A DNA stretch of 64,000 nt from a virus: the IMG/VR virus record IMGVR_UViG_3300022856_000003; one strand, given 5' to 3'. A model generated the notes under the pieces. That model searched no databases. It worked only from the letters and a program-made list of their open reading frames with translations, and had not been told where the DNA came from. The position numbers were made by a program, and so were the translations under genes. Each line of letters begins with the position of its first letter. Within the stretch, counting starts at the first letter, position 1. Of this stretch, positions 17,856 through 42,807 are shown piece by piece.

Positions 17856-19721
17856 ATGAGCTGGATCCGAGACCGAATCAACGACATCCGAGAAGGCTTC
17901 TCCGGGGATTCCGGCAAGAAGGTCCGGGACATGCTCGACACGGACAAGGAGCGTGCAGCGGCAGAGATCCGCCGTGCCTCCCGTCCGACGAACGACAGAT
18001 CGTCTCAAGCGTGGAACATGTTCGACGCCCACGGGTATGCGGGGCTCTCGGACCACTTGGTCATCGAGAACGACCTCATGACCCGCTTCCTCGACTACGA
18101 GGAGATGGACGACTTCCCCGAGCTACACACTGCGCTCGACATCTACGCGGATGACGCATCTCAGGAGGATGTTCTTCGGAACAAGTCAGTCTGGATCACG
18201 TCCGAAGACGAGCGGGTCAAAGCGATCGGCACCGAGCTGCTCCACCAGACCCTCCGTATCGAGGAAGATCTCTGGGGCATCTTTCGGACGCTGTCGAAGT
18301 ACGGAAATGCCTACGCCGAACTGCTGGTGTCGGAGGGGAAGGGAGTCATCGGACTCGCCTTCATGCCTCCGGCCACCGTGCGGCGCATGGAGGACTACAA
18401 GAACGGTCTCATGGGATTCATCCAGGACCCGTCCGGTAAGGGGATGTCACCCGAGGAGTTCAAGAAGCTCCTCGACGGTGATGGTCGCCTGAACAAGGAC
18501 GCGGTAAGCCTCGATGCATCGGGAGCGATGAAGTTGGGCCAGGCTACTGAGGCCGGTCGACACATCGTCCCGTTCGAGGACTGGGAAGTGATCCATTGGC
18601 GTCTTCGCGGTAAGTGGATGCGTTCCATTTACGGCCACTCGGTACTTGAATCGGCCCGTTGGGTCTTTCGCCGTCTCGTACTGCTCGAAGACGCTGCGAT
18701 GCTCTACAAGCTGACACGGGCTCCCGCTCGGTACGTCTACTACATCGACACCGGGGATCTGAACCCGAAGCAGGCGCTCTCCTACGTCAACGACGTTCGT
18801 CGTGGACACAAAAAGAAGAAGTACGTCAACGCTCAGGGCAAGCTCGAGTTCAAGGTCAACCCCCTCGCCCAGGATGAGGACTTCTGGGTGCCTACCCGTG
18901 GAGGCAAGGAGTCCACACGAATCGACATCCTGAGTGGAGCTGACTGGCAGTCCATGGAGGACATCAAGTACTTCCGCCAGAAGATCCTCGCTGCCATCAA
19001 GATCCCTGCCGCCTACATCGGCATGTCTGACGCTGGCGATGAGGCTCGAGCTTCGCTGTCGTCTCAAGACGTGCGATTTGCGAAGACCATCCTCCGCATC
19101 CAGCGCGAGATGAAGAACGGTCTCCGCAAAGTGATGAGGGTTCACCTCTCCGCTCTGGGCATCGACCCGTCGTCGGTGGAGTGGGACATCCACATGGCAT
19201 CTCCCAGCTCGATCTTTGAGTTGGCCCAGATTGAAGTGCGGAACGCGCAAGCTGACCTCGCTACCCGTATGGAGCCCTTCGTCGACAAGAACTGGATCCT
19301 GGCGAACATCTTCGACTTCTCTGTTGACGAGATCGAAGACATGAAGCAGGCGAAGAAGGACGACACCGAAGACGATGCAATGCATCAGACAGAGATCCAG
19401 AAGCAGCAGAGTGAGATGCTTGGGCTGAACCCTGACGGTTCCATGCCTGATGAGGAGGGTGGAGCTACCCCACCTCCTGTGGCAAAGCCGAAGCCGCCTT
19501 CTGCCGAATCGGGTGAGTCCTCGAAGGAGAAAGGGACTGGCGACAAGCGACCGAACCCGAAGAAGGGGAAGGCAAAGCCCATCAAGAAGAACACGGCTGA
19601 GAGTCGTCTCGACGCTCTTGATCGTGCGATGAAGGCCCGCCGTGCTCGTCGTCTAGACCTGACAGAAGGTGAAGAGGCAGAAGTCATCCGACCAGTCTTC
19701 CGCAAGCGGTCCGGTTCGTAG
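17856..19721 (+). CDS. gp20: portal protein, T4 gp20-like
   Basis: YEEMD..PE...ALDIYADD, LLEDAAMLYKLTRAPARYVYYIDTGDL, EDFWVPTRGG. Confidence 0.92.
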   Translation: MSWIRDRINDIREGFSGDSGKKVRDMLDTDKERAAAEIRRASRPTNDRSSQAWNMFDAHGYAGLSDHLVIENDLMTRFLDYEEMDDFPELHTALDIYADDASQEDVLRNKSVWITSEDERVKAIGTELLHQTLRIEEDLWGIFRTLSKYGNAYAELLVSEGKGVIGLAFMPPATVRRMEDYKNGLMGFIQDPSGKGMSPEEFKKLLDGDGRLNKDAVSLDASGAMKLGQATEAGRHIVPFEDWEVIHWRLRGKWMRSIYGHSVLESARWVFRRLVLLEDAAMLYKLTRAPARYVYYIDTGDLNPKQALSYVNDVRRGHKKKKYVNAQGKLEFKVNPLAQDEDFWVPTRGGKESTRIDILSGADWQSMEDIKYFRQKILAAIKIPAAYIGMSDAGDEARASLSSQDVRFAKTILRIQREMKNGLRKVMRVHLSALGIDPSSVEWDIHMASPSSIFELAQIEVRNAQADLATRMEPFVDKNWILANIFDFSVDEIEDMKQAKKDDTEDDAMHQTEIQKQQSEMLGLNPDGSMPDEEGGATPPPVAKPKPPSAESGESSKEKGTGDKRPNPKKGKAKPIKKNTAESRLDALDRAMKARRARRLDLTEGEEAEVIRPVFRKRSGS

Positions 19722-21637: not shown

Positions 21638-23794
21638 ATGACCGCACCGCATCTCCAGGAACTCATTGATGTCTACCCTGTCCGTCTCTCCCTGGAGGAG
21701 AGTACGGGCCGAGTCCTGATCAAGGGTGCGTTCGGCCATTGCAGCGAGCCCACATCGAACAAGCGGCTGTACTCCGAGAAGGTGATGCAGCCCAACTTCG
21801 ATCGGCTCAAGGAGTCGATGGGCAAGCGTCGTCTCTTCGGTGAGCTGGATCACCCCGCCGACGGGAAGACCTCGCTCAAGCGAGTCAGTCACATCGTCAC
21901 CGAACTGTCGATCACCGAGGATGGTGAAGTTCTCGGCTCGCTTGAGCCGTTGCCGACTCCCATGGGAGACATCCTCAAGGCGCTGGCGAAGGCCGGTTGC
22001 GAGCTGGGCGTGTCTAGTCGTGGTCGCGGTTCCGTCGTCACCGTCGAGGGGATCGACGAGGTCCAGAAGGACTACGTCCTAAAGACCTACGACGTGGTCG
22101 ACAATCCCGCCTCGAAGAACGCCTTCCCGACGGTGACCGAATCGGCACAGGTCGAGAGCTTCCTCGAGTCCATCGACGAGGAACACCGCGACGAACTCCG
22201 CACGGCCTTCAACGAGGCAGCGGCCCACATCGACACCTTCACGCTGGAGGACATCAAGGATGACGCTCTGCGTGCCCAGGTGTCTGAGGCTCTTCGTCTG
22301 ACTGAGGACGAGGATGCGCTGGAGGACATCGATCTCGGTGGCTCCGACAACTGGCTCGACGAGAACGAGTGGGCCGTTGCTCTGGAGGAGAAGTCTTCCA
22401 GCAAGCCGAAGAAGATTCAGGGTGGTCACCTCCTGGTGGTTGCTCCTGACGACGACATCAAGACCCTCGCTCGACGACTTGTCCGTATCTCTGTCACGGA
22501 GAAGTACAAGGGAGAGAAGATCTTCCTGTCACCGCCGAAGACTGACCGGAAGAACGCCTTCTGGTTCAACAAGTCGGACAGCAAGTTCCACGGCCTTCAC
22601 GCCAACGGCAAGGTGATGGTCAGTGGCTACAACGGCGAAGTGGTCGCTACCAACGTCCTCAAGGACTGGATGAAGGCTGGAGGTCTGCCCGTGAACGAAT
22701 CCATCGAAGACGTACTCAAGGGAGCCGGGTTCGTGAATCCCGACGCTGCGACCATGACGACGATCCTGGAGGCAGCGGAGCACGATCGTGAGTCTCTCAA
22801 GGAGGCCAAGGTCAATGTCGAGCAGAAGACCGCCGAGGTCGACCGCCTCACTGAGGTTGTCGCCAACGGATTGGTGGACGCACGAGTCGAGCTTCGCACT
22901 GAGCTGACGGAGACCATTCGCGCAGAGATGCTCGCTGATCCCGAGGTGGCTGCTTCTCGACTGGTCCTCGAGCAGGTTGCCACGGCGCTCCGTCCGATCA
23001 TGCCGTCGCTGGGTGTGGACGATCCTGCACTCCAGCAGGCCCGCCGCGACAACCTGGCCCTGTCTGACCTCCTCAAGAGCAAGGACTTCGACCTCGCGTC
23101 GGCGAAGTTCGCACACGAAGAGGCTGAGGCCACGGCAGCTTCCACGGTCCTTGAGGCGCACCTCTCGGAGAAGCTCTCGGGTCACCCGAAGGCTGACTCC
23201 ATCCGCAAGCTCATCGGCCCCCTGGACAAGCTCGAGGGGAAGGTTGATCTCGACGCTCGCTTGGAGGCTGCGTTCGAGGCCATGGGTACGGTCGCCTCGC
23301 ACACGACTGCCGTCGGTGAGGAGCAGGCTGAGCGCATCACGGCCCTCGAATCGGAGCTGGATTCCGCAAATGCAGCTCTGGACAGCAAGTCGAAGAAGCT
23401 GCTGGAGGCTGTCGCCCTGGGTGAGGAGATTGACACCGAGCGCACGATCGCCGTGATTGCCCAGAACATCGCAGAGGTGGCGGTCTACGCTTCCCGCAAG
23501 GTGGCTGGCATGGACAACGCTGTTCAGATGCTCTCGCTCTGCGAGGGTCTCGACAGCGAGGCGAAGGTCGACAAGGTCATCAAGCGGAGCATCCCCGCTA
23601 CCAACGGAAAGAACGAGATCCAGGAACGAATCACTGCACGCAAGCGTCGTTCTGCGGAGGCTCGTCTCGAAGGTGGCGAAATCGATTTCGCTGAGGAAGC
23701 TGGACAGAGGTCCCGTCCGAGTGGTATCAAGATCTCAGAGGGCTTCGAGGTGGACCTGGATGAGGCCGCTTCCCTCGCCGGGGCTTCCGGCTAA
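21638..23794 (+). CDS. gp21: prohead protease (T4 gp21-like) fused to scaffold-like coiled coil
   Basis: NKRLY, FGELDHP (His), LGVSSRGRG (Ser), YDVVDNPA; long helical C-terminus. Confidence 0.9.
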   Translation: MTAPHLQELIDVYPVRLSLEESTGRVLIKGAFGHCSEPTSNKRLYSEKVMQPNFDRLKESMGKRRLFGELDHPADGKTSLKRVSHIVTELSITEDGEVLGSLEPLPTPMGDILKALAKAGCELGVSSRGRGSVVTVEGIDEVQKDYVLKTYDVVDNPASKNAFPTVTESAQVESFLESIDEEHRDELRTAFNEAAAHIDTFTLEDIKDDALRAQVSEALRLTEDEDALEDIDLGGSDNWLDENEWAVALEEKSSSKPKKIQGGHLLVVAPDDDIKTLARRLVRISVTEKYKGEKIFLSPPKTDRKNAFWFNKSDSKFHGLHANGKVMVSGYNGEVVATNVLKDWMKAGGLPVNESIEDVLKGAGFVNPDAATMTTILEAAEHDRESLKEAKVNVEQKTAEVDRLTEVVANGLVDARVELRTELTETIRAEMLADPEVAASRLVLEQVATALRPIMPSLGVDDPALQQARRDNLALSDLLKSKDFDLASAKFAHEEAEATAASTVLEAHLSEKLSGHPKADSIRKLIGPLDKLEGKVDLDARLEAAFEAMGTVASHTTAVGEEQAERITALESELDSANAALDSKSKKLLEAVALGEEIDTERTIAVIAQNIAEVAVYASRKVAGMDNAVQMLSLCEGLDSEAKVDKVIKRSIPATNGKNEIQERITARKRRSAEARLEGGEIDFAEEAGQRSRPSGIKISEGFEVDLDEAASLAGASG
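23677..23690. repeat. dispersed palindrome copy (intragenic, encodes EIDF)
   Basis: GCGAAATCGATTTCGC. Confidence 0.9.
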
Positions 23795-23849: not shown

Positions 23850-25328
23850 ATGGAAGCCCGCGAAATGCTCCACGAGAACGGCACCCGCACGGTCGCCGAC
23901 GAGTCCTACACCAAGCAGCTCCGCACCAAGTGGGGCAAGCTTCTCGAGGGCATCACCGACACCTACAAGGCCAACGTGACGGCCGTTCTCTGCGAGAACG
24001 AGACGACTCACCTTCGGACCCTGAACGAAGAGACGCTCCAGTCGGGCGTCGGCAGCTTCACGAAGTACATCTTCCCGATTCTGCGTCGTGTGTTCCCCAA
24101 CCTGATCGCCCACGAGATCATGAGCGTCCAGCCCATGACCGCGCCGATCGGTGCCGTGTTCTTCTACGAGTACGTCCACTCGAACGCCAAGGGCGGCATC
24201 GCCTCGGGTGACAACCTCATCGAGACCTTCTCGGAGTGGTACAGCGCCGAGTACGTGGCCGAGGAGAGCCTGGCTACCGGAGACGGCGTCGACACCAGTT
24301 GGTCCGAGACCCTGGCGTGGACCCCGATTCGCCCACTCGACGCGGACTACGGCTGGTCCGTGACCATCACCGACGGCACCGAGATCTTCACGGACAACGG
24401 CAGCGGTGTCCTGACGGGCGACGCGGGCGGCTCGGGCACGGTCAACTACACGACCGGCGAGGTCTCGGTCACGTTCAACGCTGCGGTGACGAACAACCAG
24501 GCGATCACGGCGAACTACTACTACAACTCCGAGTCGAACTCGCAGATCCCCGAGGTCGAACTGAACCTCACGATGGTCGAGGTTCGTGCTCAGACGCGGA
24601 AGCTGAAGGCTCGCTGGAGTGCCGAGGCCGCTGACGACCTGCGCGCGTTCCACGGCATCGACGCCGAGGCCGAGCTGGTCGCGGGCATCGCCAACGAGAT
24701 CGCCCTGGAGATCGACCGTGAGCTGATCGACATGCTCGTGAGCAACGCGGGCATCTCGACGACCTGGACGTACACGAACCCGACGAACTCGGCTCGTGAG
24801 CTGGACGCGGTCCGCAACCTGCTGACGCTGCTCTCCGGCCTCTCGGCGCGGATTCACCGGGACAGCAAGCGCGCCCCGGCGAACTTCATCGTGACGACCC
24901 CGGAGGTCTGCGCGCTGCTCGAGCAGCTCACCACGCATGGCGACTACCGTCCTGCCTACGTGAGCAACCCGAACAGCCCGTTCGGCCCCGCCGACGCTCA
25001 GCAGGGACCGACCTACGGCCCGCTGACCTCGAACTTCGGCATCCAGCGCGTCGGAACGCTGATGCAGAAGTGGGCCGTCTACCAGGACCCCTTCCTCTCG
25101 GCTGCGACCGCCGCGAAGACGCTGCTCCTGGGACTCAAGGGCCGGAACTTCATGGACGCGGGTGCGGTGTACGCGCCGTACATCCCGCTCCAGGTGACTC
25201 CGACCTTCCTGGACCCGGATGACTTCACGTTCCGCAAGGGAATGCGGACCCGGTACAGCAAGAAGATGCTCCGCACGGAGTACTACGCGACCATCGCGAT
25301 CTCCGGTCTGCCCACCGCTTCCCTGTAA
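23850..25328 (+). CDS. gp23: major capsid protein, T4 gp23-like, with insertion domain
   Basis: RRVFPNLIA..IMSVQPMTAP, TRKLKARWSAEAADDL..FHGIDAEAEL, EIDRE, YAPYIPL, GMRTRY. Confidence 0.95.
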   Translation: MEAREMLHENGTRTVADESYTKQLRTKWGKLLEGITDTYKANVTAVLCENETTHLRTLNEETLQSGVGSFTKYIFPILRRVFPNLIAHEIMSVQPMTAPIGAVFFYEYVHSNAKGGIASGDNLIETFSEWYSAEYVAEESLATGDGVDTSWSETLAWTPIRPLDADYGWSVTITDGTEIFTDNGSGVLTGDAGGSGTVNYTTGEVSVTFNAAVTNNQAITANYYYNSESNSQIPEVELNLTMVEVRAQTRKLKARWSAEAADDLRAFHGIDAEAELVAGIANEIALEIDRELIDMLVSNAGISTTWTYTNPTNSARELDAVRNLLTLLSGLSARIHRDSKRAPANFIVTTPEVCALLEQLTTHGDYRPAYVSNPNSPFGPADAQQGPTYGPLTSNFGIQRVGTLMQKWAVYQDPFLSAATAAKTLLLGLKGRNFMDAGAVYAPYIPLQVTPTFLDPDDFTFRKGMRTRYSKKMLRTEYYATIAISGLPTASL

Positions 25329-34835: not shown

Positions 34836-37283
34836 ATGGCTGAGCTGACATACCCCGGCATCTACATCGAAGAGAAGGCTGGAGGCCCCGCGCCCGTCCA
34901 GGGCGTCTCTACGTCCATCCTGGCCCTTGTGGGCTGGACGCCGAAGGGCTTGACCGACGACCCGATCCTCGTGTCTGGCTTCAAGGAGTTCGAGCGCAAG
35001 TTCGGTGGCTTCACGTCCGATGGTCTGGTCCCGACGATGCTGCACTCGTTCTTCAAGAACGGTGGCCAGCTCGCTCGCATCGTCCGGGTTGCTGGTACGG
35101 GCAACGCCAACGGGAAGACCTACATCTCGGAAGAGGTCGAAGAGGAAGACACCGGCTACGACGCCGACGACTCGACGTTGGTCTTCACGGGCCAGGGTCT
35201 CGACGAGGCGCCGGTTGAGCCTGGCTCGATCGCTGGGATTGTGGAGTTCGTGGATGTCGACTCAACCGGCACGACTGGGGTGTCCACTGCCCCTGACGGA
35301 GTCATCGCCATCTGGACCACGGGAACCCCCGTAGGCGGCCAGGGTCAGTTCGTGGACATCTCCGGTCTGATCGGAGACATCGGGATCCAGCCCGGGACCG
35401 TGACCATCGACTGGGCCAGCGGCGGCGCGAAGTCGATGACCGACGACGGTTCTGGTGCCTTCACGGGCGACGGCAACGCGGCGGGGTCGATCATCGACTA
35501 CCTCACGGGTGCCATCATGTTCGACGCCAGTGGCGACATCCCAGACTCGGGCCTCGTCGGGACCATCACCTTCGACCACAAGGGCGTCAGCCGTGGGACG
35601 GTCACTGATGACGGGGCAGGCGCGGTCGAGGGCACGAACGTCGCCAGCGGCACCATCGACTACACGACCGGTGCCATCGCGATCACGTTCACGAAGCCTC
35701 CGGCCCTGACCTTCCCGGACTCGGGCTCCTCGAGCGAGAACTCCGAGACCATCGAAGTCGACTACGGGGGTGTCCTCTGGGAAGTCGACATGCTCTGGCC
35801 TGGCCTGGCCGGGAACAACTTCTCGGTCATGATCTTCGGCTCGCCCGGTTCGGAGAACGATGCGGACGCCAGCTTCACCCTGCACACCTTCCAGGTGCTC
35901 GAGGATGGAGTCGTCATCGAGCAGTGGGACAACATCGATTTCAGCGACAGCAACAGCGTCGACTTCTTCCCGCTGGTGGTGAACGACGAAAAGTCTGGCT
36001 CGAAGCACGTCGCGATCACGGACATCGGGTACGATGGAGTCCCCGCCGTGCTCCATGGCATCGAGGTCAGCGCCGAGAACCAGAGTCAGACTCCGGCCAT
36101 CGACGGTGTCGAGACCGAGTTCACGTTCACGCTCGGTGAGGATAGTTGCTACGCGACCTCGCTCGTGATCACGGCCACTGACACGGGTGCTGCGACCATG
36201 ACGGTCACGGACGACGGAGACGGCAACCTCATCGGTGACGTGAACTCGGCCGGTACCAACACGATCGACTACGAGACCGGCGCAGTGGACGTGACGTTCG
36301 GCACGGCGGTTCAGAACGCATCGGTCATAACGGCCGACTACTTCACGGAGCCCGACTACGAGTCCGTCGAGGACGACATGGCGGGCGGTCTCGACGGCTC
36401 TGCTGTCACCTCGTCGAACCTGATCGCTGCGGCGCTCGAGTCGACCTCCCAGGGGCTCTACGCGCTCAACAAGACCGACGACATGCTCATGGTCATCACC
36501 CCCGACTTCGCGGGTGACGAGACCACTGATCAGGCGGTGCTCGACTACTGCGAGAACCGCATGGATCGCTTCGCGATCCTCACGACGGTCGAGGGCATGA
36601 GCTACGACGATGCCGTGGTCTACAAGCGACGGACGCTCGCCAGGAACAGCAACAACTACGGAGCCATCTACTGGCCGTGGGTTCAGATTCTCGACCCGGT
36701 GACGGAGAAGTCTCTGAACATCCCACCCATCGGTCACGTGGCTGGCGTCTTCGCTCGCACTGACGCGAAGAGGAACATCGGCAAGGCCCCGGCAGGCGCG
36801 GTGGATGGATCGATGCGCTTCATTCTGGGCCTGGCTCAGAGTCCGACGAAGGCAGAGGTCGGAACGCTGACTCGTGGTCGTGTGAACGCTCTGGTGGACT
36901 GGCAACAGGTCGGATCACCCGCCGTCTGGGGTGCTCGCACCCTGGAGTCAAACGGTGAGTTCGGGTACGTCCAGGCTCGCCGCCTGTTCATGTTCCTGGA
37001 GAAGTCGGTCTTCAACGCAACCCACATCTACGCGTTCGAGAACAACGGTTCGGCGCTCTGGGCTCGGATTCGCCTCCAGCTCAACGGCTTCCTGTTCCGC
37101 CTGTTCCAGCAGGGCTACTTCGCGGGCACTACTCCCGAGGAGGCGTACTTCATCACGGTGGACTCCACGAACAACCCCCAGGAGTCCGTGGACGCTGGAG
37201 AGCTGTACGTGGATGTCGGTGTCGCTCCTGGCAAGCCTGCTGAGTTCATCGTCTTCCGTTTCGCCCAGAAGATCCCCGGCTGA
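34836..37283 (+). CDS. gp18: contractile tail sheath protein with inserted repeated beta domains
   Basis: YPGIYIEE, SFFKNGG, IYWPWV, PPIGHVAGVFARTD, VWGARTL, FENN...LW, PAEFIVFRF. Confidence 0.95.
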   Translation: MAELTYPGIYIEEKAGGPAPVQGVSTSILALVGWTPKGLTDDPILVSGFKEFERKFGGFTSDGLVPTMLHSFFKNGGQLARIVRVAGTGNANGKTYISEEVEEEDTGYDADDSTLVFTGQGLDEAPVEPGSIAGIVEFVDVDSTGTTGVSTAPDGVIAIWTTGTPVGGQGQFVDISGLIGDIGIQPGTVTIDWASGGAKSMTDDGSGAFTGDGNAAGSIIDYLTGAIMFDASGDIPDSGLVGTITFDHKGVSRGTVTDDGAGAVEGTNVASGTIDYTTGAIAITFTKPPALTFPDSGSSSENSETIEVDYGGVLWEVDMLWPGLAGNNFSVMIFGSPGSENDADASFTLHTFQVLEDGVVIEQWDNIDFSDSNSVDFFPLVVNDEKSGSKHVAITDIGYDGVPAVLHGIEVSAENQSQTPAIDGVETEFTFTLGEDSCYATSLVITATDTGAATMTVTDDGDGNLIGDVNSAGTNTIDYETGAVDVTFGTAVQNASVITADYFTEPDYESVEDDMAGGLDGSAVTSSNLIAAALESTSQGLYALNKTDDMLMVITPDFAGDETTDQAVLDYCENRMDRFAILTTVEGMSYDDAVVYKRRTLARNSNNYGAIYWPWVQILDPVTEKSLNIPPIGHVAGVFARTDAKRNIGKAPAGAVDGSMRFILGLAQSPTKAEVGTLTRGRVNALVDWQQVGSPAVWGARTLESNGEFGYVQARRLFMFLEKSVFNATHIYAFENNGSALWARIRLQLNGFLFRLFQQGYFAGTTPEEAYFITVDSTNNPQESVDAGELYVDVGVAPGKPAEFIVFRFAQKIPG

Positions 37284-37294
37284 TAGCCCCTGGG

Positions 37295-37308
37295 CGAAAT
37301 CGATTTCA
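37295..37308. repeat. dispersed palindrome copy after the sheath gene
   Basis: CGAAATCGATTTCA. Confidence 0.88.
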
Positions 37309-37383
37309 TTGGACTGGCACTGGTCCATGGCCAGATTCGGCAAGTAGCTGATACACTGGCCGCAGCACCCCTGGAGATTCAGA

Positions 37384-37680
37384 ATGAGCAACCCCACGAA
37401 GAACGTCCGAGGCACTCCCGAGAAGAACCGCAAGGCCAACCATGTGCCGAGTGCGTTCCCATTCGACGGTGGGCTGAACCTGGAAGAGCCCGGATCGGCC
37501 ACGGTCTATCTGGCCAAGTTCAACAAGGCGATGGCCGATGTTGAGGTCGGAATGATGGCTTCTGGTCTTCGTCCCGGCATGGCTGGCTACGATGATGTGA
37601 AGTCGGGCCAGACCGGCTACGGCGTGCCTTCCCCTGGTCTCGATGCAGCTCCCGCTGGCCTCTTCATCAAGAAGGTCTGA
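37384..37680 (+). CDS. hypothetical protein
   Basis: GGAG SD; TGaTACACT -10-like element upstream. Confidence 0.6.
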   Translation: MSNPTKNVRGTPEKNRKANHVPSAFPFDGGLNLEEPGSATVYLAKFNKAMADVEVGMMASGLRPGMAGYDDVKSGQTGYGVPSPGLDAAPAGLFIKKV

Positions 37681-37706
37681 GCGGACCCGCTCGTCGAGGT
37701 AAATAG

Positions 37707-38192
37707 ATGGCCGTCGCAGATCTCATCCCTAGCTACTTCACGCAGATCTTTGCGTCTGGCGACGGCGTGACGGGAATTTCGTACACGGGCGAAGAGACCG
37801 TCCTTCGGACGCACCCCACGATCCCGGCGAGGAATGGACGAATCCATGTCGCGGGGAAGTCAGGGTCCGAGGCCGGTGCCATCGACGGCGGGTTGCTTGA
37901 CCTGGCGACGCTTCGCCTTGGACTCTGGAACCGTCTTCAAGGCGTGTTCATCAAGCTCCCGAACATCAGCAACATCAGCTTGTTCGCCGTGGACGAGGAT
38001 GGGATCACCTACCTCATGGCCACGGTGGCGAGCGACACGATGGTGATGGATGGGTTCTCGTCGAAGTGGCTCCAGCCGGGGTGGAACGTCAAGGTCGTCG
38101 CTACGGGTACGCTCAATGCGGCAGGCAAGATTCATTTCATCTTCGACGAGTGGGCCAACCCGATCGCCGTCGCACAAATCACCACCGGATAG
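37707..38192 (+). CDS. hypothetical (possibly virion) protein
   Basis: GAGGT SD; beta-rich. Confidence 0.6.
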   Translation: MAVADLIPSYFTQIFASGDGVTGISYTGEETVLRTHPTIPARNGRIHVAGKSGSEAGAIDGGLLDLATLRLGLWNRLQGVFIKLPNISNISLFAVDEDGITYLMATVASDTMVMDGFSSKWLQPGWNVKVVATGTLNAAGKIHFIFDEWANPIAVAQITTG

Positions 38193-38203
38193 GGGAGCCT
38201 GAT

Positions 38204-38704
38204 ATGGCGCGTACCGAGTCATCTGATCCTCTGCACGGCTTCCGCTTCCACGTTCGTACTGAGACGGAGGCGGGGCAGTTCTCCGACTCTGAGTTGGGCG
38301 AGGCTGGCTTCCAGTCCTGCACGCTTCCCGAGCTATCGACGGAGTCGGTGGAGTACCGCGAGGGCCACCTCACGTACACGAAGAAGTTCCCTGGAGTCCC
38401 CACGGTCTCGAACCTCACGCTGATGCGTGGAGTGACGAAGACGGACACCAGCTTCTACGACTGGGTCCTCACGGCCATCGAGGGTGGTGAGTACCGCACG
38501 AACCTGACCGTCTACCACTGGCATCGCGATGGGAAGACCAGCGGCCAGATCGCGGACCTCAACGCGGCGCGGAAGTACAACTGCTACGAGTGCTTCCCGA
38601 GTCGTTGCAAGCCCGCTGCGGACCTCGACGCCACCTCGAGTGAGGTGTCGCTGGCCGAGGTCGATGTCGAGGTCGAGTACTTCGAGATCGAAGACGCAAC
38701 CTGA
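38204..38704 (+). CDS. gp19: tail tube protein (T4 gp19/Afp1-like)
   Basis: DPLHGFRFHV, GFQSC, VEYREG, KFPG...NLTLMRG, FYDW. Confidence 0.9.
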   Translation: MARTESSDPLHGFRFHVRTETEAGQFSDSELGEAGFQSCTLPELSTESVEYREGHLTYTKKFPGVPTVSNLTLMRGVTKTDTSFYDWVLTAIEGGEYRTNLTVYHWHRDGKTSGQIADLNAARKYNCYECFPSRCKPAADLDATSSEVSLAEVDVEVEYFEIEDAT

Positions 38705-38721
38705 GATCCTGGGAGTAGTTG

Positions 38722-39279
38722 ATGCACTCTCTCGTCCACCGGGTGAAGACCCTGACGGAGCACAAGTTCCACTTCCTCGGAGGTGGAGCTGTCAGGATCA
38801 CTCGCGCCAGGCTGTCTGCTCACCTGAGCGAGTCTGGACTCGAGTCCGCTGCATTCTTGGACGAAGGCAGCTTGCTTCCTCGATCATTGGCCGAAGACCT
38901 GGCCGAGGATGGTCGAGTGTCAGGCATCGTCCGCTCTGAGCCCTCTGACGACCCTGCGATGGCACTGGTGAAGCGAGCCTTCGCCTATGCCCGTAAGGAG
39001 GCTCGTGGGTGGTCTCAGGCTGAGTTAATCGCCGAGTTCGCAACGGACTACCCGGATGATTACGAGATACGTCTCCGCAAGGCCGTCTCACACATCGCCC
39101 AGTCCTACATCAACGAGGCTGTGGTCAAGACAGCCTATGAGGCGTGTCCCGCGAAGCCTTCGATGGAATGGGCTCTCCCTACCAAAAGCGTGTTCGTCGA
39201 CATCTTGGCTGACATCGTCGAAGAGCGGATGAGCAAGGGGATCTCCAAGTACAAGAGGGGTCTCGACGACGCCGTCTGA
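38722..39279 (+). CDS. hypothetical protein with divergent leader (MHSLVHRVKTLTE)
   Basis: GGAG SD; 185 aa. Confidence 0.6.
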   Translation: MHSLVHRVKTLTEHKFHFLGGGAVRITRARLSAHLSESGLESAAFLDEGSLLPRSLAEDLAEDGRVSGIVRSEPSDDPAMALVKRAFAYARKEARGWSQAELIAEFATDYPDDYEIRLRKAVSHIAQSYINEAVVKTAYEACPAKPSMEWALPTKSVFVDILADIVEERMSKGISKYKRGLDDAV

Positions 39280-39280
39280 G

Positions 39281-39294
39281 CGAAATCGATTTCT
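39281..39294. repeat. dispersed palindrome copy immediately after a stop codon
   Basis: CGAAATCGATTTCT. Confidence 0.88.
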
Positions 39295-39309
39295 AGCCGA
39301 GGTGGCGTA

Positions 39310-39978
39310 GTGCGTTCATTCATTCAAGATCTTCGCGAAGAGGCCGGTGCCATGCACAAGGTCTTCTGGCACTTCCCACTCAGTGGTGAAGCGTTGAAGG
39401 ACTTCGTCCTTCTGCGTGGGCTCGTCAAGGACTTCCTCGGTGAGGATCTGAGCATCCCGACCCTCGACCCCCACCTGACCATCCTCTACATGGGTGAGGT
39501 CTACGAAGGTGACCTGCCCGCGATCATGGAGGCAGGGGCTAGTGCTCTCGCTTCTATGACTGGTCGGCCGTACTTCGAGGGTAGCGAGGTGAGCTTCTTC
39601 CCCATCACCGACAGGAGTGAGGGGAACCAGCCCATCGTCCTCAAGGTCAACGGTGGAGTTGAGGACATCCACAACCGACTGTTGCGTGCGCTCGCCCCCT
39701 GGGTGACGAAGGCGCAGTTTCTCGACTTCCAGATGCACATCACCTTCGGCTACCTGATTGGTCGAAAGCTCACGGCTGAGGAGTACTTCCAGCTCCGAAA
39801 GATGGGACCGCCCCACGACATCAATGGCCCGATCCAGAATGTGCGACTCACTGCTGGAAAGGAGTTCGAGAAGGACTTCCACCTGGGTCCGGTGCCCAAA
39901 AAGAGAGCGCGAAGAGATGGCGAGCGAGCCTATCCAACAGGCGTCAGCGCACTGAGCACGCCGCCATCCAATGGCTAG
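39310..39978 (+). CDS. 2H phosphoesterase (LigT/Acb1-like) with capsid-targeting-like leader
   Basis: Two HxT motifs (PHLTILY, MHITFGY) about 90 aa apart; N-terminus MRSFIQDLREE. Confidence 0.8.
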   Translation: MRSFIQDLREEAGAMHKVFWHFPLSGEALKDFVLLRGLVKDFLGEDLSIPTLDPHLTILYMGEVYEGDLPAIMEAGASALASMTGRPYFEGSEVSFFPITDRSEGNQPIVLKVNGGVEDIHNRLLRALAPWVTKAQFLDFQMHITFGYLIGRKLTAEEYFQLRKMGPPHDINGPIQNVRLTAGKEFEKDFHLGPVPKKRARRDGERAYPTGVSALSTPPSNG

Positions 39979-40516
39979 GCTTCGCCTTCAGGATAGGATG
40001 CAGGCGTATCCATTCTGGCTCGTAGATATCGAGCCGAACCTTTACGCTCCGTTCTTCGCTCTCAATCCACTGCTTGGCTTCCAGTCATGTTCGAGCGTCG
40101 AGATCGGCATCGAGCACACTGAGCATCGAGCCTTGGATAGGATGTTCCCAGTCCATATGCCGTTGGCGGGTACCATCTCCCCCATCACGTTGAGGCGTGG
40201 GGCTCTGCTTGGCGTGTCCGACTTCTACCGATGGGTCGACCGTCACCAGAAGGGCGAGGATCGATCGCGGAGAAATCTGCTCCTGATTCACTTCCTGACA
40301 CTCGGCGTGAACACAGAGATCGATGGCGTGGCACAAGCTATCGCCGGTCCTGCTGCCGAAGTAATTCGACCTCCGGGGCGAGCCTGGGTCCTGTGGAACT
40401 GTGTCCCTACGAGGTATGGCTCTGGTGAGCTTGACGCCTCGAGTGGACAGGTGGTCATTCACGAGGTCGAGGTACAACCTGGCGCTGTCACTCAGGTGGA
40501 TCTCGGGGTCGTTTAA
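39971..40516 (+). CDS. second tail tube-like protein (Afp5-like paralogue)
   Basis: GFQSCS, ITLRRG, DFYRW, RRNLLLI, WVLWNCVPTRY, ELDASS. Confidence 0.8.
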   Translation: MARLRLQDRMQAYPFWLVDIEPNLYAPFFALNPLLGFQSCSSVEIGIEHTEHRALDRMFPVHMPLAGTISPITLRRGALLGVSDFYRWVDRHQKGEDRSRRNLLLIHFLTLGVNTEIDGVAQAIAGPAAEVIRPPGRAWVLWNCVPTRYGSGELDASSGQVVIHEVEVQPGAVTQVDLGVV

Positions 40517-40800
40517 CTCGCACCATTGAGACTCTCAAGTAGGACGCCCGAGTCCTGTGTTGGCTGCTCATGGGTTGCCCTGTCCTATCCCCCACCTGCC
40601 CGTCCGAACAGAGGGAGTCCGCATGCTGGACTACACGGTCTGCACGAGGGATAGGTTGATGTGGTTGTAGTAGCGTGCATCTGACCCCTCTGGTATGTTG
40701 CTCGAACCGCTAAATGCACAGCGATCTCTCCCGTAGCGCGCCCGTCGACACCTCGTCGCGGCCCTCCTGAAAGACACTGAACAATCCAAAGGGGGCGCTG

Positions 40801-42807
40801 ATGAATCAGGCCATAGCCGCGACTCGATTCCCGAATCTACTGAGCGAGTTTGTCTATACGAGGACCTACTCCAGATGGATGAACGAAGAGAGTCGTCGCG
40901 AGAAGTGGCCTGAGACCGTCACCCGGTACGTCAACTACGTCTGTGCGAAGCTCGAGTCTGCACCAGACGTGAGTGAAGCTCTGCTGTCTGAGACGAGGTC
41001 CGAACTCTGGAATGCCATCGTCAACATGGACACGCTCCCGTCGATGCGCGCCATGTGGTCGGCCGGGAAGTCGCTCGAAGCAGACAACTGCTTTGGCTAC
41101 AACTGCGCCTTCCTCCCCATCGATTCGGTAGTCAGCTTCACGGAGGCGCTCTACATCTTGATGTGTGGAACTGGAGTCGGGTTCAGCGTCGAATCCCAGT
41201 TCGTGAACAACCTGCCGAAGGTGTATGAACCCTCAGAGGGCTATGTCTCGACGTGCTTCACGGTTCCTGATTCGACCATCGGATGGAAGGAAGCATTCGA
41301 GTTCGGATTGATGACATGGTGGCAGGGCGGGGATGTGGTCTTTGACTACTCTCTGGTCCGAGAGAAGGGATCCATCCTCAAAACGAAGGGTGGACGAGCC
41401 TCCGGTCCTGAGCCTCTCAAGAAGCTCCTCGACTTTGCCCGGAAGATGATCATGGGTGCCCAGGGTCGACAGCTCCGTCCCATCGAGTGCCACGACCTGA
41501 TGTGCATCGTGGGTGAGGTCGTCGTCGTTGGTGGTGTTCGTCGCGCCGCTCTCATCTCCGTCTCAGATCCGTGGGATGTGGATATGCGCCACGCGAAGGA
41601 CTGGTCTGACGGAAAGACCTTCCCGTCGCTGCGGTACATGAGCAACAACAGCTCGTACTGGGAGGAACGACCGGAGCCGGAACTCTTCTGGCAGGAGTGG
41701 GTTGCACTCCAGAGGTCTGGCTCTGGTGAACGTGGCTTCCTCATCGACAACTTCCATCTGCGGTCCGACAGGCCAAAGGGTTCTTGTCGAACCAACCCCT
41801 GTGGTGAGATCGGGCTCCGCTTCAAGCTCTCCACGAACCCCTGGACGGGTGAAGGCGGTGGTGGCCAGTTCTGCAACCTGACAGCCACGGTGGTGCGCCC
41901 CTGGGACACTCTCGAGACCATGCTCGAGAAGGTGAGGCTCGCAGCCATCCTGGGGACGATCCAGGCGTCCTGGACCCACTTCCCGCACATCCGACCGGGC
42001 TGGGCCGAGACCTGCAACGAGGACCGCCTTCTGGGTGTCGACATCACGGGACAGTGCGACAACCCCACGCTCTGCAACGACCCCGAGTCCATGCGCCAAC
42101 TCAACCGGATGGCCATCGATACGAACATCGAGTGGGCCAGGCGACTCGGAATCAACGAGGCAGCGGCAGTCACCTGTGGCAAGCCAAGTGGGAACAGCTC
42201 TCAGCTTGTGAACTGCGCCAGTGGTTTTCATCACCGGTTCTCCAGCTTCTACTTCCGGCACGTCCGCATCAGCGCAGCCGATCCCCTGTTCTTGCTCGCT
42301 CGGGACTCAGGCATTCCCTACTACAAGGAGAATGGTCAGGAGGATCGCGCCGATGAGGATGTAGAGGTCTGGGTGGTTCGCTTCCCTGTGCGGGCACCAG
42401 AGGGATCTGTCCTTCGGAACTCAGAGACAGCCATCGAGCAGCTCGAGCGTTACCTTCACATCATGCGAACATGGTGCGGTGAGAAGGGTCACAACCAGTC
42501 GGCCACGATCTACGTCAAGGAACACGAGTGGGACGAGGTCGGCGCGTGGGTCTATGAGAACTTCGACGAAATCACCGGGGTCAGCTTCCTGCCATTCGAT
42601 GGCGGCAAGTACAACCTGGCCCCCTACGTCGAGATCACCGAAGCTGAGTACGAGATTGCCCAGGCAGAGATGCCGATCATCGACTTCGACATCCTGACCC
42701 TCTACGAGAAGGAGGACCGAGGGGAAGGTTCCACTGAACTCGCGTGCGTCGGCGGAAGCTGCGAAATCGATTTCGATAAGATGGCTATGGAGGCCACCGC
42801 TCAGTAG
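40801..42807 (+). CDS. nrdJ: class II (adenosylcobalamin-dependent) ribonucleotide reductase
   Basis: RTYSRW, YNCAF, GGRASGP, GGVRRAA, TNPCGEI, KPSGNSS, C-terminal ACVGGSCE; no beta-subunit gene nearby. Confidence 0.9.
   Translation: MNQAIAATRFPNLLSEFVYTRTYSRWMNEESRREKWPETVTRYVNYVCAKLESAPDVSEALLSETRSELWNAIVNMDTLPSMRAMWSAGKSLEADNCFGYNCAFLPIDSVVSFTEALYILMCGTGVGFSVESQFVNNLPKVYEPSEGYVSTCFTVPDSTIGWKEAFEFGLMTWWQGGDVVFDYSLVREKGSILKTKGGRASGPEPLKKLLDFARKMIMGAQGRQLRPIECHDLMCIVGEVVVVGGVRRAALISVSDPWDVDMRHAKDWSDGKTFPSLRYMSNNSSYWEERPEPELFWQEWVALQRSGSGERGFLIDNFHLRSDRPKGSCRTNPCGEIGLRFKLSTNPWTGEGGGGQFCNLTATVVRPWDTLETMLEKVRLAAILGTIQASWTHFPHIRPGWAETCNEDRLLGVDITGQCDNPTLCNDPESMRQLNRMAIDTNIEWARRLGINEAAAVTCGKPSGNSSQLVNCASGFHHRFSSFYFRHVRISAADPLFLLARDSGIPYYKENGQEDRADEDVEVWVVRFPVRAPEGSVLRNSETAIEQLERYLHIMRTWCGEKGHNQSATIYVKEHEWDEVGAWVYENFDEITGVSFLPFDGGKYNLAPYVEITEAEYEIAQAEMPIIDFDILTLYEKEDRGEGSTELACVGGSCEIDFDKMAMEATAQ
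42762..42775. repeat. dispersed palindrome copy inside the 3' end of nrdJ (EIDF)
   Basis: CGAAATCGATTTCG. Confidence 0.9.

Follow-up and report, generated by a model that had tools for sequence, protein, structure and literature searches.

A leader-bearing 2H phosphoesterase encoded between two tail-tube genes of a phage with a T4-type head: a candidate for delivery with the genome

We analysed a 64-kb window (the whole stretch of DNA referred to below, 64,000 nucleotides) of a 144,042-bp contig from an uncultured phage, IMG/VR record IMGVR_UViG_3300022856_000003, and in it the gene at positions 39310-39978. According to family profiles and a structural model, the product of this gene is almost certainly a real enzyme of the 2H phosphoesterase superfamily. 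It starts with a 10-residue leader that resembles the capsid-targeting sequence (CTS) of phage T4. Taken as a whole, the best explanation of our results is that the enzyme is loaded into the head by its leader, trimmed by the S77 protease of the phage and ejected together with the DNA, with immune nucleotide signals as the leading substrate; we give this complete account about an even chance of being right.

Two HxT triplets in a protein of 222 residues are near the chance level on their own (by our estimate, ~0.6 are expected), but they are meaningful here because they are conserved in the family alignment and because the protein folds as a 2H enzyme. The closest homologue, P0002 (195 residues, 49% identical, expectation value (E) 8e-38), is labelled '2'-5' RNA ligase' by one source, and an exhaustive profile search yielded 132 relatives at E<=1e-3. 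We used three alignments: A2, with 30 stand-alone relatives including three canonical LigT-like ones; A3, a tight 10-member set; and A4, with 72 fused relatives. In A2 (n=30), H55 and T57 never vary and H143 and T145 hardly do, and all four are invariant in A4 (n=72), so that the pair of HxT motifs reported in the original prediction is present and conserved in the family. AlphaFold2 supplied with A2 gave a model with a predicted local distance difference test score (pLDDT) of 89 and a predicted template-modelling score of 0.80; a two-sequence run, with a pLDDT of 54, was discarded. The model consists of a helix at residues 2-12, which precedes the first strand of the 2H core and has a pLDDT of 73, the 2H core itself (~15-191) and a disordered tail (195-222). 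The core has a bilobed alpha+beta fold, which VIA-align superimposed on Usb1 with a Z of 18.6 (root-mean-square deviation 2.2, 173 residues aligned) and on Escherichia coli LigT with a Z of 16.5 (2.3, 163 aligned); the top matches of this program cover 155-175 residues. In Foldseek the probability was 1.00, with template-modelling scores of 0.70-0.76. The window protein scored 20.1 bits with the Pfam model 2_5_RNA_ligase2 (cut-off 27) and 18.5 bits with LigT_PEase (cut-off 23.3), and its single sequence had no match among the PDB sequences. The first of these models recognized all 30 members of A2 at E<=0.01, the best of them at E 3.8e-17. The calculated isoelectric point (pI) of the protein is ~6.2. 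A match to the PHROG 'head maturation protease' (E 0.01) was rejected, as this is a composite profile of 861 positions, and the match covers only the 2H part and does not point to protease activity.

Most members of the family are long proteins: 98 of the 132 relatives exceed 270 residues. Among 72 of these long relatives, Pfam identified Phage_portal_3 in 52, a prohead protease of S78 type in 8 and MuF in 1, and an iterative search of all 98 gave 70 portal, 8 S78 and 1 MuF fusions, 79 proteins altogether. In the profile search, the nearest solo forms are followed directly by the portal, MuF and S78 fusions, which start at E 4e-20, and in the portal fusions the 2H domain is mostly C-terminal. 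In the fused forms the match to the profile begins only at position ~20-60 and thus excludes the leader, which therefore lies outside the 2H core. Iyer, Burroughs, Anand, de Souza and Aravind (2017; PMC5512222) described such architectures as 'polyvalent proteins' that are injected with the DNA, and noted their solo counterparts. They proposed that the 2H domain fused to portal or MuF proteins acts as an RNase or degrades nucleotide signals of the host (PMC5512222, section 20), and stated that this version of the domain and its solo counterparts are never associated with RNA ligases; capsid-targeting sequences go unmentioned in that paper. On an unrelated high-GC viral contig (L001, 7038-11209), we also observed a 2H domain in the middle of a 671-residue open reading frame (ORF), which directly follows an ORF of 781 residues; judged by eye, the latter resembles a portal plus MuF-type protein.

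The N-terminal sequence of the window protein, MRSFIQDLRE, had been singled out in the original prediction as a packaging-like leader, and leaders of the same kind are indeed found on three unrelated proteins of the same phage. When both strands of the window were searched for gene starts with the strict pattern M-[RK]-x-[LFIVM]-[ILV]-x-x-[LIVM]-x-E, four were found on the plus strand (28978, 30603, 31996 and 39310) and none on the minus strand; amino-acid composition predicts ~0.009 per 100 genes, an optimistic value, since the pattern was defined post hoc. The leader is not a recent DNA repeat, because the four starts have their own ribosome-binding sites and diverged DNA. Variant leaders with L-T-E ending at residue 13 are present on the genes at 38722 and 20427. 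The N-terminus of the S77 protease has L-Q-E ending at residue 8, and in the capsid protein an L-N-E at residue 60 precedes the Pfam Gp23 match by eight residues, at the expected boundary of a T4-type propeptide. In T4, the first 10 residues of the internal protein IPIII suffice for capsid targeting, with residues 4 and 7 driving targeting and residues 8 and 10 driving processing by gp21 (PMC9026906). Leu8 and Glu10 of MRSFIQDLRE fit this processing signature (relative to the predicted cut, an aliphatic residue at -3 and Glu at -1), and the S77 protease is the presumed leader-removing enzyme.

Similar leaders could be recognized by eye on 17 of the 34 short stand-alone homologues (22-48% identical to the window protein, on other contigs); examples are MKLLFEELE, MQALIEALD, MRAIIEALVD, MKSLFEVVSE and MRLLRELLE, all located ahead of the first core strand. 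The canonical LigT-like members begin straight at that strand. We calculated a quick maximum-likelihood tree of 126 2H domains from the columns filled in >=30% of the rows, a threshold that should drop the leader columns (filled in ~17 of 126 rows). In this tree 16 of the 17 leader-bearing proteins cluster, and the distribution of leaders requires 2 label changes as compared with 16.2 in shuffles, although deep support is weak (Shimodaira-Hasegawa-like approximate likelihood-ratio test, 81). As judged from these comparisons, the combination of leader and 2H domain is old and has been retained.

The mechanism that we propose would start with an active, metal-independent 2H phosphoesterase, equipped with the two His-x-Thr motifs and made late, together with the tail genes. 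Its 10-residue leader would bring it into the prohead core, where the gp21-type S77 protease would trim the leader after Glu10. The enzyme would be kept in the filled head, ejected with the DNA and at work in the new host ahead of all phage gene expression. Since a protein made with the tail genes could matter at the start of infection only if it were carried by the particle, the position of the gene may itself be linked to pre-loading. In the new host, the enzyme is predicted to cleave 2',3'-cyclic, 2'-5' or 3'-5' phosphodiesters beside a free ribose hydroxyl. Heading the list of candidate substrates are the cyclic oligonucleotides of the cyclic oligonucleotide-based antiphage signalling system (CBASS), the cyclic oligoadenylates of type III CRISPR (clustered regularly interspaced short palindromic repeats) systems and 2'-5'-linked signals, with RNA ends as a close second. 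The idea of carriage in the virion, already part of the original prediction, has considerable comparative support from the leader, the S77 protease, the leader-bearing clade and the relatives fused to portal, protease or MuF proteins. Adding the late structural context of the gene, we regard loading by the leader, trimming by S77 and ejection with the DNA as reasonably probable. The assignment of the substrate is weaker. An immune nucleotide signal is a tentative assignment, RNA ends or RNA in general are possible to much the same degree, and other substrates account for what is left.

The original prediction called the protein Acb1-like, after the 2H enzyme of T4 that degrades CBASS signals, and this label was not sustained. 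The Pfam Acb1 model (PF23474) had no match to the window protein at E<=1, and BLASTP against T4 Acb1 gave an E of 2.8, i.e. no detectable pairwise similarity. Compared with solved structures, the A2 profile matched LigT-type enzymes at E 1.6e-12 (PH0099) to 1.2e-9, Acb1 at 4.7e-4 and the penguinpox cyclic GMP-AMP (cGAMP) phosphodiesterase at 0.015, and the A3 profile matched PH0099 at 7e-4 and Acb1 at 0.24. The structural comparison of the model with Acb1 and LigT gave the same order. Human Usb1 (VIA-align Z 18.6) was followed by TT0787, drCPDase, PH0099 and E. coli LigT (16.5-17.4), AKAP18 (14.8), MHV ns2 (14.1), the Acb1 structures 7T26, 7T27, 9Q2G and 9Q2Y (11.6-12.3), rotavirus VP3 (12.0) and the penguinpox phosphodiesterase (9.7), and Foldseek ranked the LigT-type enzymes and Usb1 well above Acb1. 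The protein does not belong to the ThpR equivalog of NCBIfam either (TIGR02258, 17 bits as compared with a cut-off of 65.7). We filed it, on profile and model comparisons, as a distinct 2H clade that is neither Acb1 nor the ThpR equivalog. Acb1-like chemistry could nevertheless be retained by a protein outside the Acb1 family, because several 2H families cleave signalling nucleotides.

This placement gives substance to the alternative that the substrate is RNA, which we consider possible. In one form of this alternative, the protein would act as a LigT/ThpR-type 2',3'-cyclic phosphodiesterase and heal RNA ends cut by host anticodon or ribosomal nucleases; in another, equally conceivable form, it would be a Usb1-like 3'-exoribonuclease that damages host RNA. 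Both forms bear on the substrate alone and can be combined with packaging. The closest solved relative by profile is of LigT type, the top structures are Usb1 and LigT-type enzymes, and an RNase is among the two options offered by Iyer et al. (2017). On the other hand, the lack of association with RNA ligases reported in the same paper argues against end healing, since healing without sealing would be of little value. In addition, the gap in Z is partly due to the smaller size of Acb1, and the score for the ThpR equivalog is low. Some members of the clade also graze the Acb1 cut-off of 27 bits (P0026 with 28.8 bits, through fragmentary stretches, and P0016 with 26.4; P0058 has 19.8), and at E<=0.01 the Acb1 model recognizes 6 of the 30 members of A2.

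A different alternative, which we find unlikely, is that the protein is not packaged at all but is an ordinary cytoplasmic late enzyme, with a structural or regulatory N-terminal helix whose resemblance to a CTS is accidental. The leader-bearing homologues form almost one clade, so that the helix could be an inherited structural feature, and it is modelled with moderate confidence. To our knowledge, T4 Acb1 has not been described as a virion protein. What argues against an accidental resemblance is that the leader is also present on three unrelated proteins of the same phage, that its last residues carry the aliphatic-x-Glu signature of an S77 protease, an enzyme that the phage encodes, and that the fused relatives have no leader and are covalently tethered to proteins of the capsid interior instead. 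Finally, tail cargo or an assembly factor, for example one placed in the lumen of the tube, as happens in extracellular contractile injection systems, seems very improbable: payloads of PVC-type injection systems do use N-terminal leaders, and the site directly upstream of tube paralogue 2, which the gene overlaps, is kept in a distant relative, but the leader fits a head-protease signature and no known tail signal, every identified fusion partner is a head-interior protein, and neither the number nor the identity of the genes that separate the tube paralogues is constant.

Several points weigh against a head-loaded enzyme directed at immune signals. The 2H gene lies among tail genes, not head genes. 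Because the leader-bearing homologues are nearly one clade, they represent approximately one origin of the combination, not many independent ones, and the leaders are less uniform in G001, the one relative with more sequence (28.8 kb). The leader pattern was written down after the leaders had been sighted, which flatters its statistics. As to the substrate, the protein is nearer to LigT/ThpR and Usb1 than to Acb1 in the comparisons of profiles and of the structural model, and a partner RNA ligase is possible elsewhere in the genome, of which 64 of 144 kb were seen. Packaging, cleavage, ejection and substrate are all steps that we infer.

Table 1. Features of the window discussed in the text (coordinates refer to the window)
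Feature	Position	Strand	Basis or remark
Portal_T4	17856..19721		Pfam E 3.7e-63
718-residue head-maturation protease, N-terminal gp21-type S77	21638..23794	+	Peptidase_S77 E 5.4e-13; phrog_207 E 5.8e-42
Gp23 capsid protein	23850..25328		Pfam E 3.9e-66
Unrelated 160-residue protein, leader MRALINSLTE	28978..29460	+	Pattern match
Topoisomerase IB-like 403-residue protein, leader MRGLILNITE	30603..31814	+	Pfam Topoisom_I E 4.6e-10
Unrelated 111-residue protein, leader MKALISDLEE	31996..32331	+	Pattern match
Tail tube paralogue 1 (gp19-like)	38201..38704	+	Pfam PF06841 E 2.8e-20; phrog_4542 tail tube
Orphan 185-residue gene, variant leader (MHSLVHRVKTLTE)	38722..39279	+	Makes up the insert between the tube genes together with the 2H gene
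Palindrome copy GAAATCGATTTC	39282..39293	.	In the 30-nt gap 5' of the 2H gene, 16 nt upstream
Shine-Dalgarno-like GAGGTGG	39300..39306	+	4 nt 5' of the GTG of the 2H gene; read from sequence
Predicted 2H phosphoesterase, coding sequence	39310..39978	+	ORF list and sequence; 222 residues, stop included, GTG start
Leader, residues 1-10 (MRSFIQDLRE)	39310..39339	+	Candidate capsid-targeting and cleavage tag; predicted cut after Glu10
First catalytic motif H55-L-T57 (PHLTILY)	39472..39480	+	Invariant in A2, A3 and A4
Second catalytic motif H143-I-T145 (MHITFGY)	39736..39744	+	Nearly invariant in A2; invariant in A3 and A4
Basic C-terminal tail, residues 195-222, pI ~10.9	39892..39975	+	pLDDT 50-56; absent from P0002 and P0003
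Tail tube paralogue 2 (gp19-like)	39971..40516	+	Pfam PF06841 E 3.4e-12; 28% identical to paralogue 1

The window has a GC content of ~59%, and its genes are nearly all on the plus strand. The ORF at 39310-39978 and its location between two tail-tube genes, as given in the original prediction, proved correct: the reading frame of 222 residues has a Shine-Dalgarno sequence, a 49%-identical homologue and 132 relatives, and both flanking genes match Pfam Phage_T4_gp19. The order of the tail genes is sheath (34836-37283), two small genes, tube 1, the orphan gene, the 2H gene and tube 2, the start of which overlaps the 3' end of the 2H gene by 8 nt. This overlap falls in the part that encodes the C-terminal tail of the 2H protein (PKKRARRDGER...), 28 basic disordered residues not found in the nearest homologues. 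The tail could be an extension that binds nucleic acid or promotes co-packaging with DNA. For the 185-residue product of the orphan gene, Pfam, PHROGs, a word-index search and the Atlas returned no family or homologue, and no fold was found. In the region 40517-42807, downstream of tube 2, we observed a 285-nt non-coding gap and then an adenosylcobalamin-dependent class II ribonucleotide reductase of RTPR type (TIGR02505 E 1.6e-61, under the cut-off of the model), and the tail module thus stops abruptly at a gene of nucleotide metabolism.

Related loci were found in scans of IMG/VR and of Joint Genome Institute (JGI) metagenomes. There were three, all of them retrieved with the A3 profile; the same scans with A1, P0002, P0003 and tube protein 1 as queries gave no related loci. 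One of the three is on the low-GC relative G001 (locus L003, IMG/VR), where the order is sheath, a small gene, tube 1, three small genes, the 2H gene and tube 2. Its 2H orthologue, P0026, is 28% identical to the window protein, and G001 also encodes an S77 protease within a 713-residue ORF (G001:C1:15624-16067). Because G001 has the same order, the location of the 2H gene immediately 5' of tube 2 is a conserved feature of the lineage. The genes that precede it after tube 1 differ in identity and in number, one in the window and three in G001. Among GenBank phages, nothing was found by tblastn with the 2H protein, with the leader-bearing P0017 or with the 2H part of L001, or by megablast with the surrounding 10 kb. 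The portal-2H fusion P0019 retrieved portal halves only, so that no cultured phage with this 2H clade was found in GenBank.

The original prediction also drew attention to a palindrome just upstream of the 2H gene. The copy of GAAATCGATTTC is there, but it was rejected as a regulatory element specific to this gene because it is part of a genome-wide array. The window contains 12 exact copies, and 19 with <=1 mismatch, where 0.13 are expected; they extend from 1071 to 61100, are ~3 kb apart and in many cases lie directly before gene starts. Searches of 37000-41000 revealed neither a sigma-70-like promoter nor an intrinsic terminator, and there was no stem-loop close to the 2H gene.

Some further observations concern the proteins with leaders and the head protease. 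Behind its leader, the protein encoded at 30603-31814 has the catalytic core of a topoisomerase IB of eukaryotic/poxvirus type. By analogy with poxvirus virions, it may be a capsid-packaged topoisomerase. In the 718-residue protease, the S77 domain (residues 26-169) is followed by ~500 acidic, helix-rich residues with many aliphatic-x-Glu sites, which makes the protein look like a fusion of protease and scaffold. In phage T4 itself (L005, NC_000866, 3592-4411, minus strand), acb1 (gene 57B) lies directly upstream of ipI. The N-terminus of T4 Acb1, MMEFKDFST, resembles the IPI leader MKTFKEFTST, with Phe at positions 4 and 7 and TTTAAAGAnTTT shared in the DNA, and does not have the aliphatic-8/Glu-10 processing site. 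T4 Acb1 could have a leader for targeting only, or the resemblance could be due to chance over nine residues.

Each element taken singly is known: the 2H superfamily, the targeting tag of T4 and the notion that 2H domains are injected. In the literature that we searched, there was no description of their combination in a stand-alone 2H clade that has a T4-type leader, is kept by diverged phages with S77 proteases and occupies a conserved position between tube paralogues, no paper on a packaged Acb1 or a CTS-tagged phosphodiesterase, and no experimental test of the prediction of injected 2H domains made in 2017. Acb1, Apyc1 and similar degraders of signals are regarded as made after infection starts. 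We suggest, as a doubtful generalization, that a 2H phosphodiesterase is pre-loaded throughout a clade of phages with heads of T4 type, by means of a cleavable leader, and destroys immune signals (CBASS, type III CRISPR or 2'-5'-linked ones) from the entry of the DNA onwards. If so, it would be the first known case in which an enzymatic anti-signalling effector is delivered in finished form, and nucleotide-based immunity would be disarmed before any phage gene is expressed. The 2H domain would then reach the capsid interior by at least four routes, namely the leader and fusion to the portal, the prohead protease or MuF. The 2H gene of the window would represent the compact, soluble, stand-alone version with a recognizable loading tag. 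If both the chemistry and the delivery were true, leaders could be used to predict which proteins uncultured phages with T4-type heads inject.

Among known systems, profile search assigns the window protein to the clade of the polyvalent 2H proteins (PMC5512222), for which the same logic of delivery has been predicted. Unlike the fused polyvalent forms it is solo, with an apparent T4-type leader in place of covalent fusion, and its gene in addition holds a conserved position between two tube paralogues. The best profile and structural matches, covering the full core, are LigT/ThpR enzymes (5LDI, E. coli LigT; 1VDX, PH0099 of P. horikoshii; 1IUH, TT0787 of T. thermophilus) and human Usb1 (5V1M). 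Unlike LigT, the window protein has an N-terminal leader, a basic C-terminal tail and a viral structural context, and fusions to head proteins occur in its clade but not in cellular LigT. With Acb1 (T4 gene 57B, an anti-CBASS 2H nuclease; 7T26/7T27, 9Q2G) it shares the superfamily, the pair of HxT motifs, the encoding by a phage and a plausible role in counter-defence, whereas the core of Acb1 comprises ~140-150 residues and that of the window protein ~175.

The T4 tag is MKTYQEFIAE, and the internal proteins of T4 are small and basic. The leader of the window protein differs from this tag in sequence, and its cargo, the 2H enzyme, is acidic to neutral. As with the CTS that gp21 removes from IPI-III (Mullaney & Black 1996, reviewed in PMC9026906), the leader is a tag of 10 residues in which position 8 is aliphatic and position 10 is Glu. 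As in T4, it is found on unrelated proteins of one phage, whose portal is of gp20 type, whose S77 protease is of gp21 type and whose capsid protein is of gp23 type. The C-terminal 2',5'-phosphodiesterase of rotavirus VP3 (5AF2, 4YE2) comes from a eukaryotic double-stranded RNA virus, is one of the domains of the capping enzyme and is no near sequence relative of the window protein, but as a virion-carried 2H enzyme that destroys 2-5A, an immune nucleotide signal of the host, it is the closest functional precedent for a 2H immune antagonist borne by virions.

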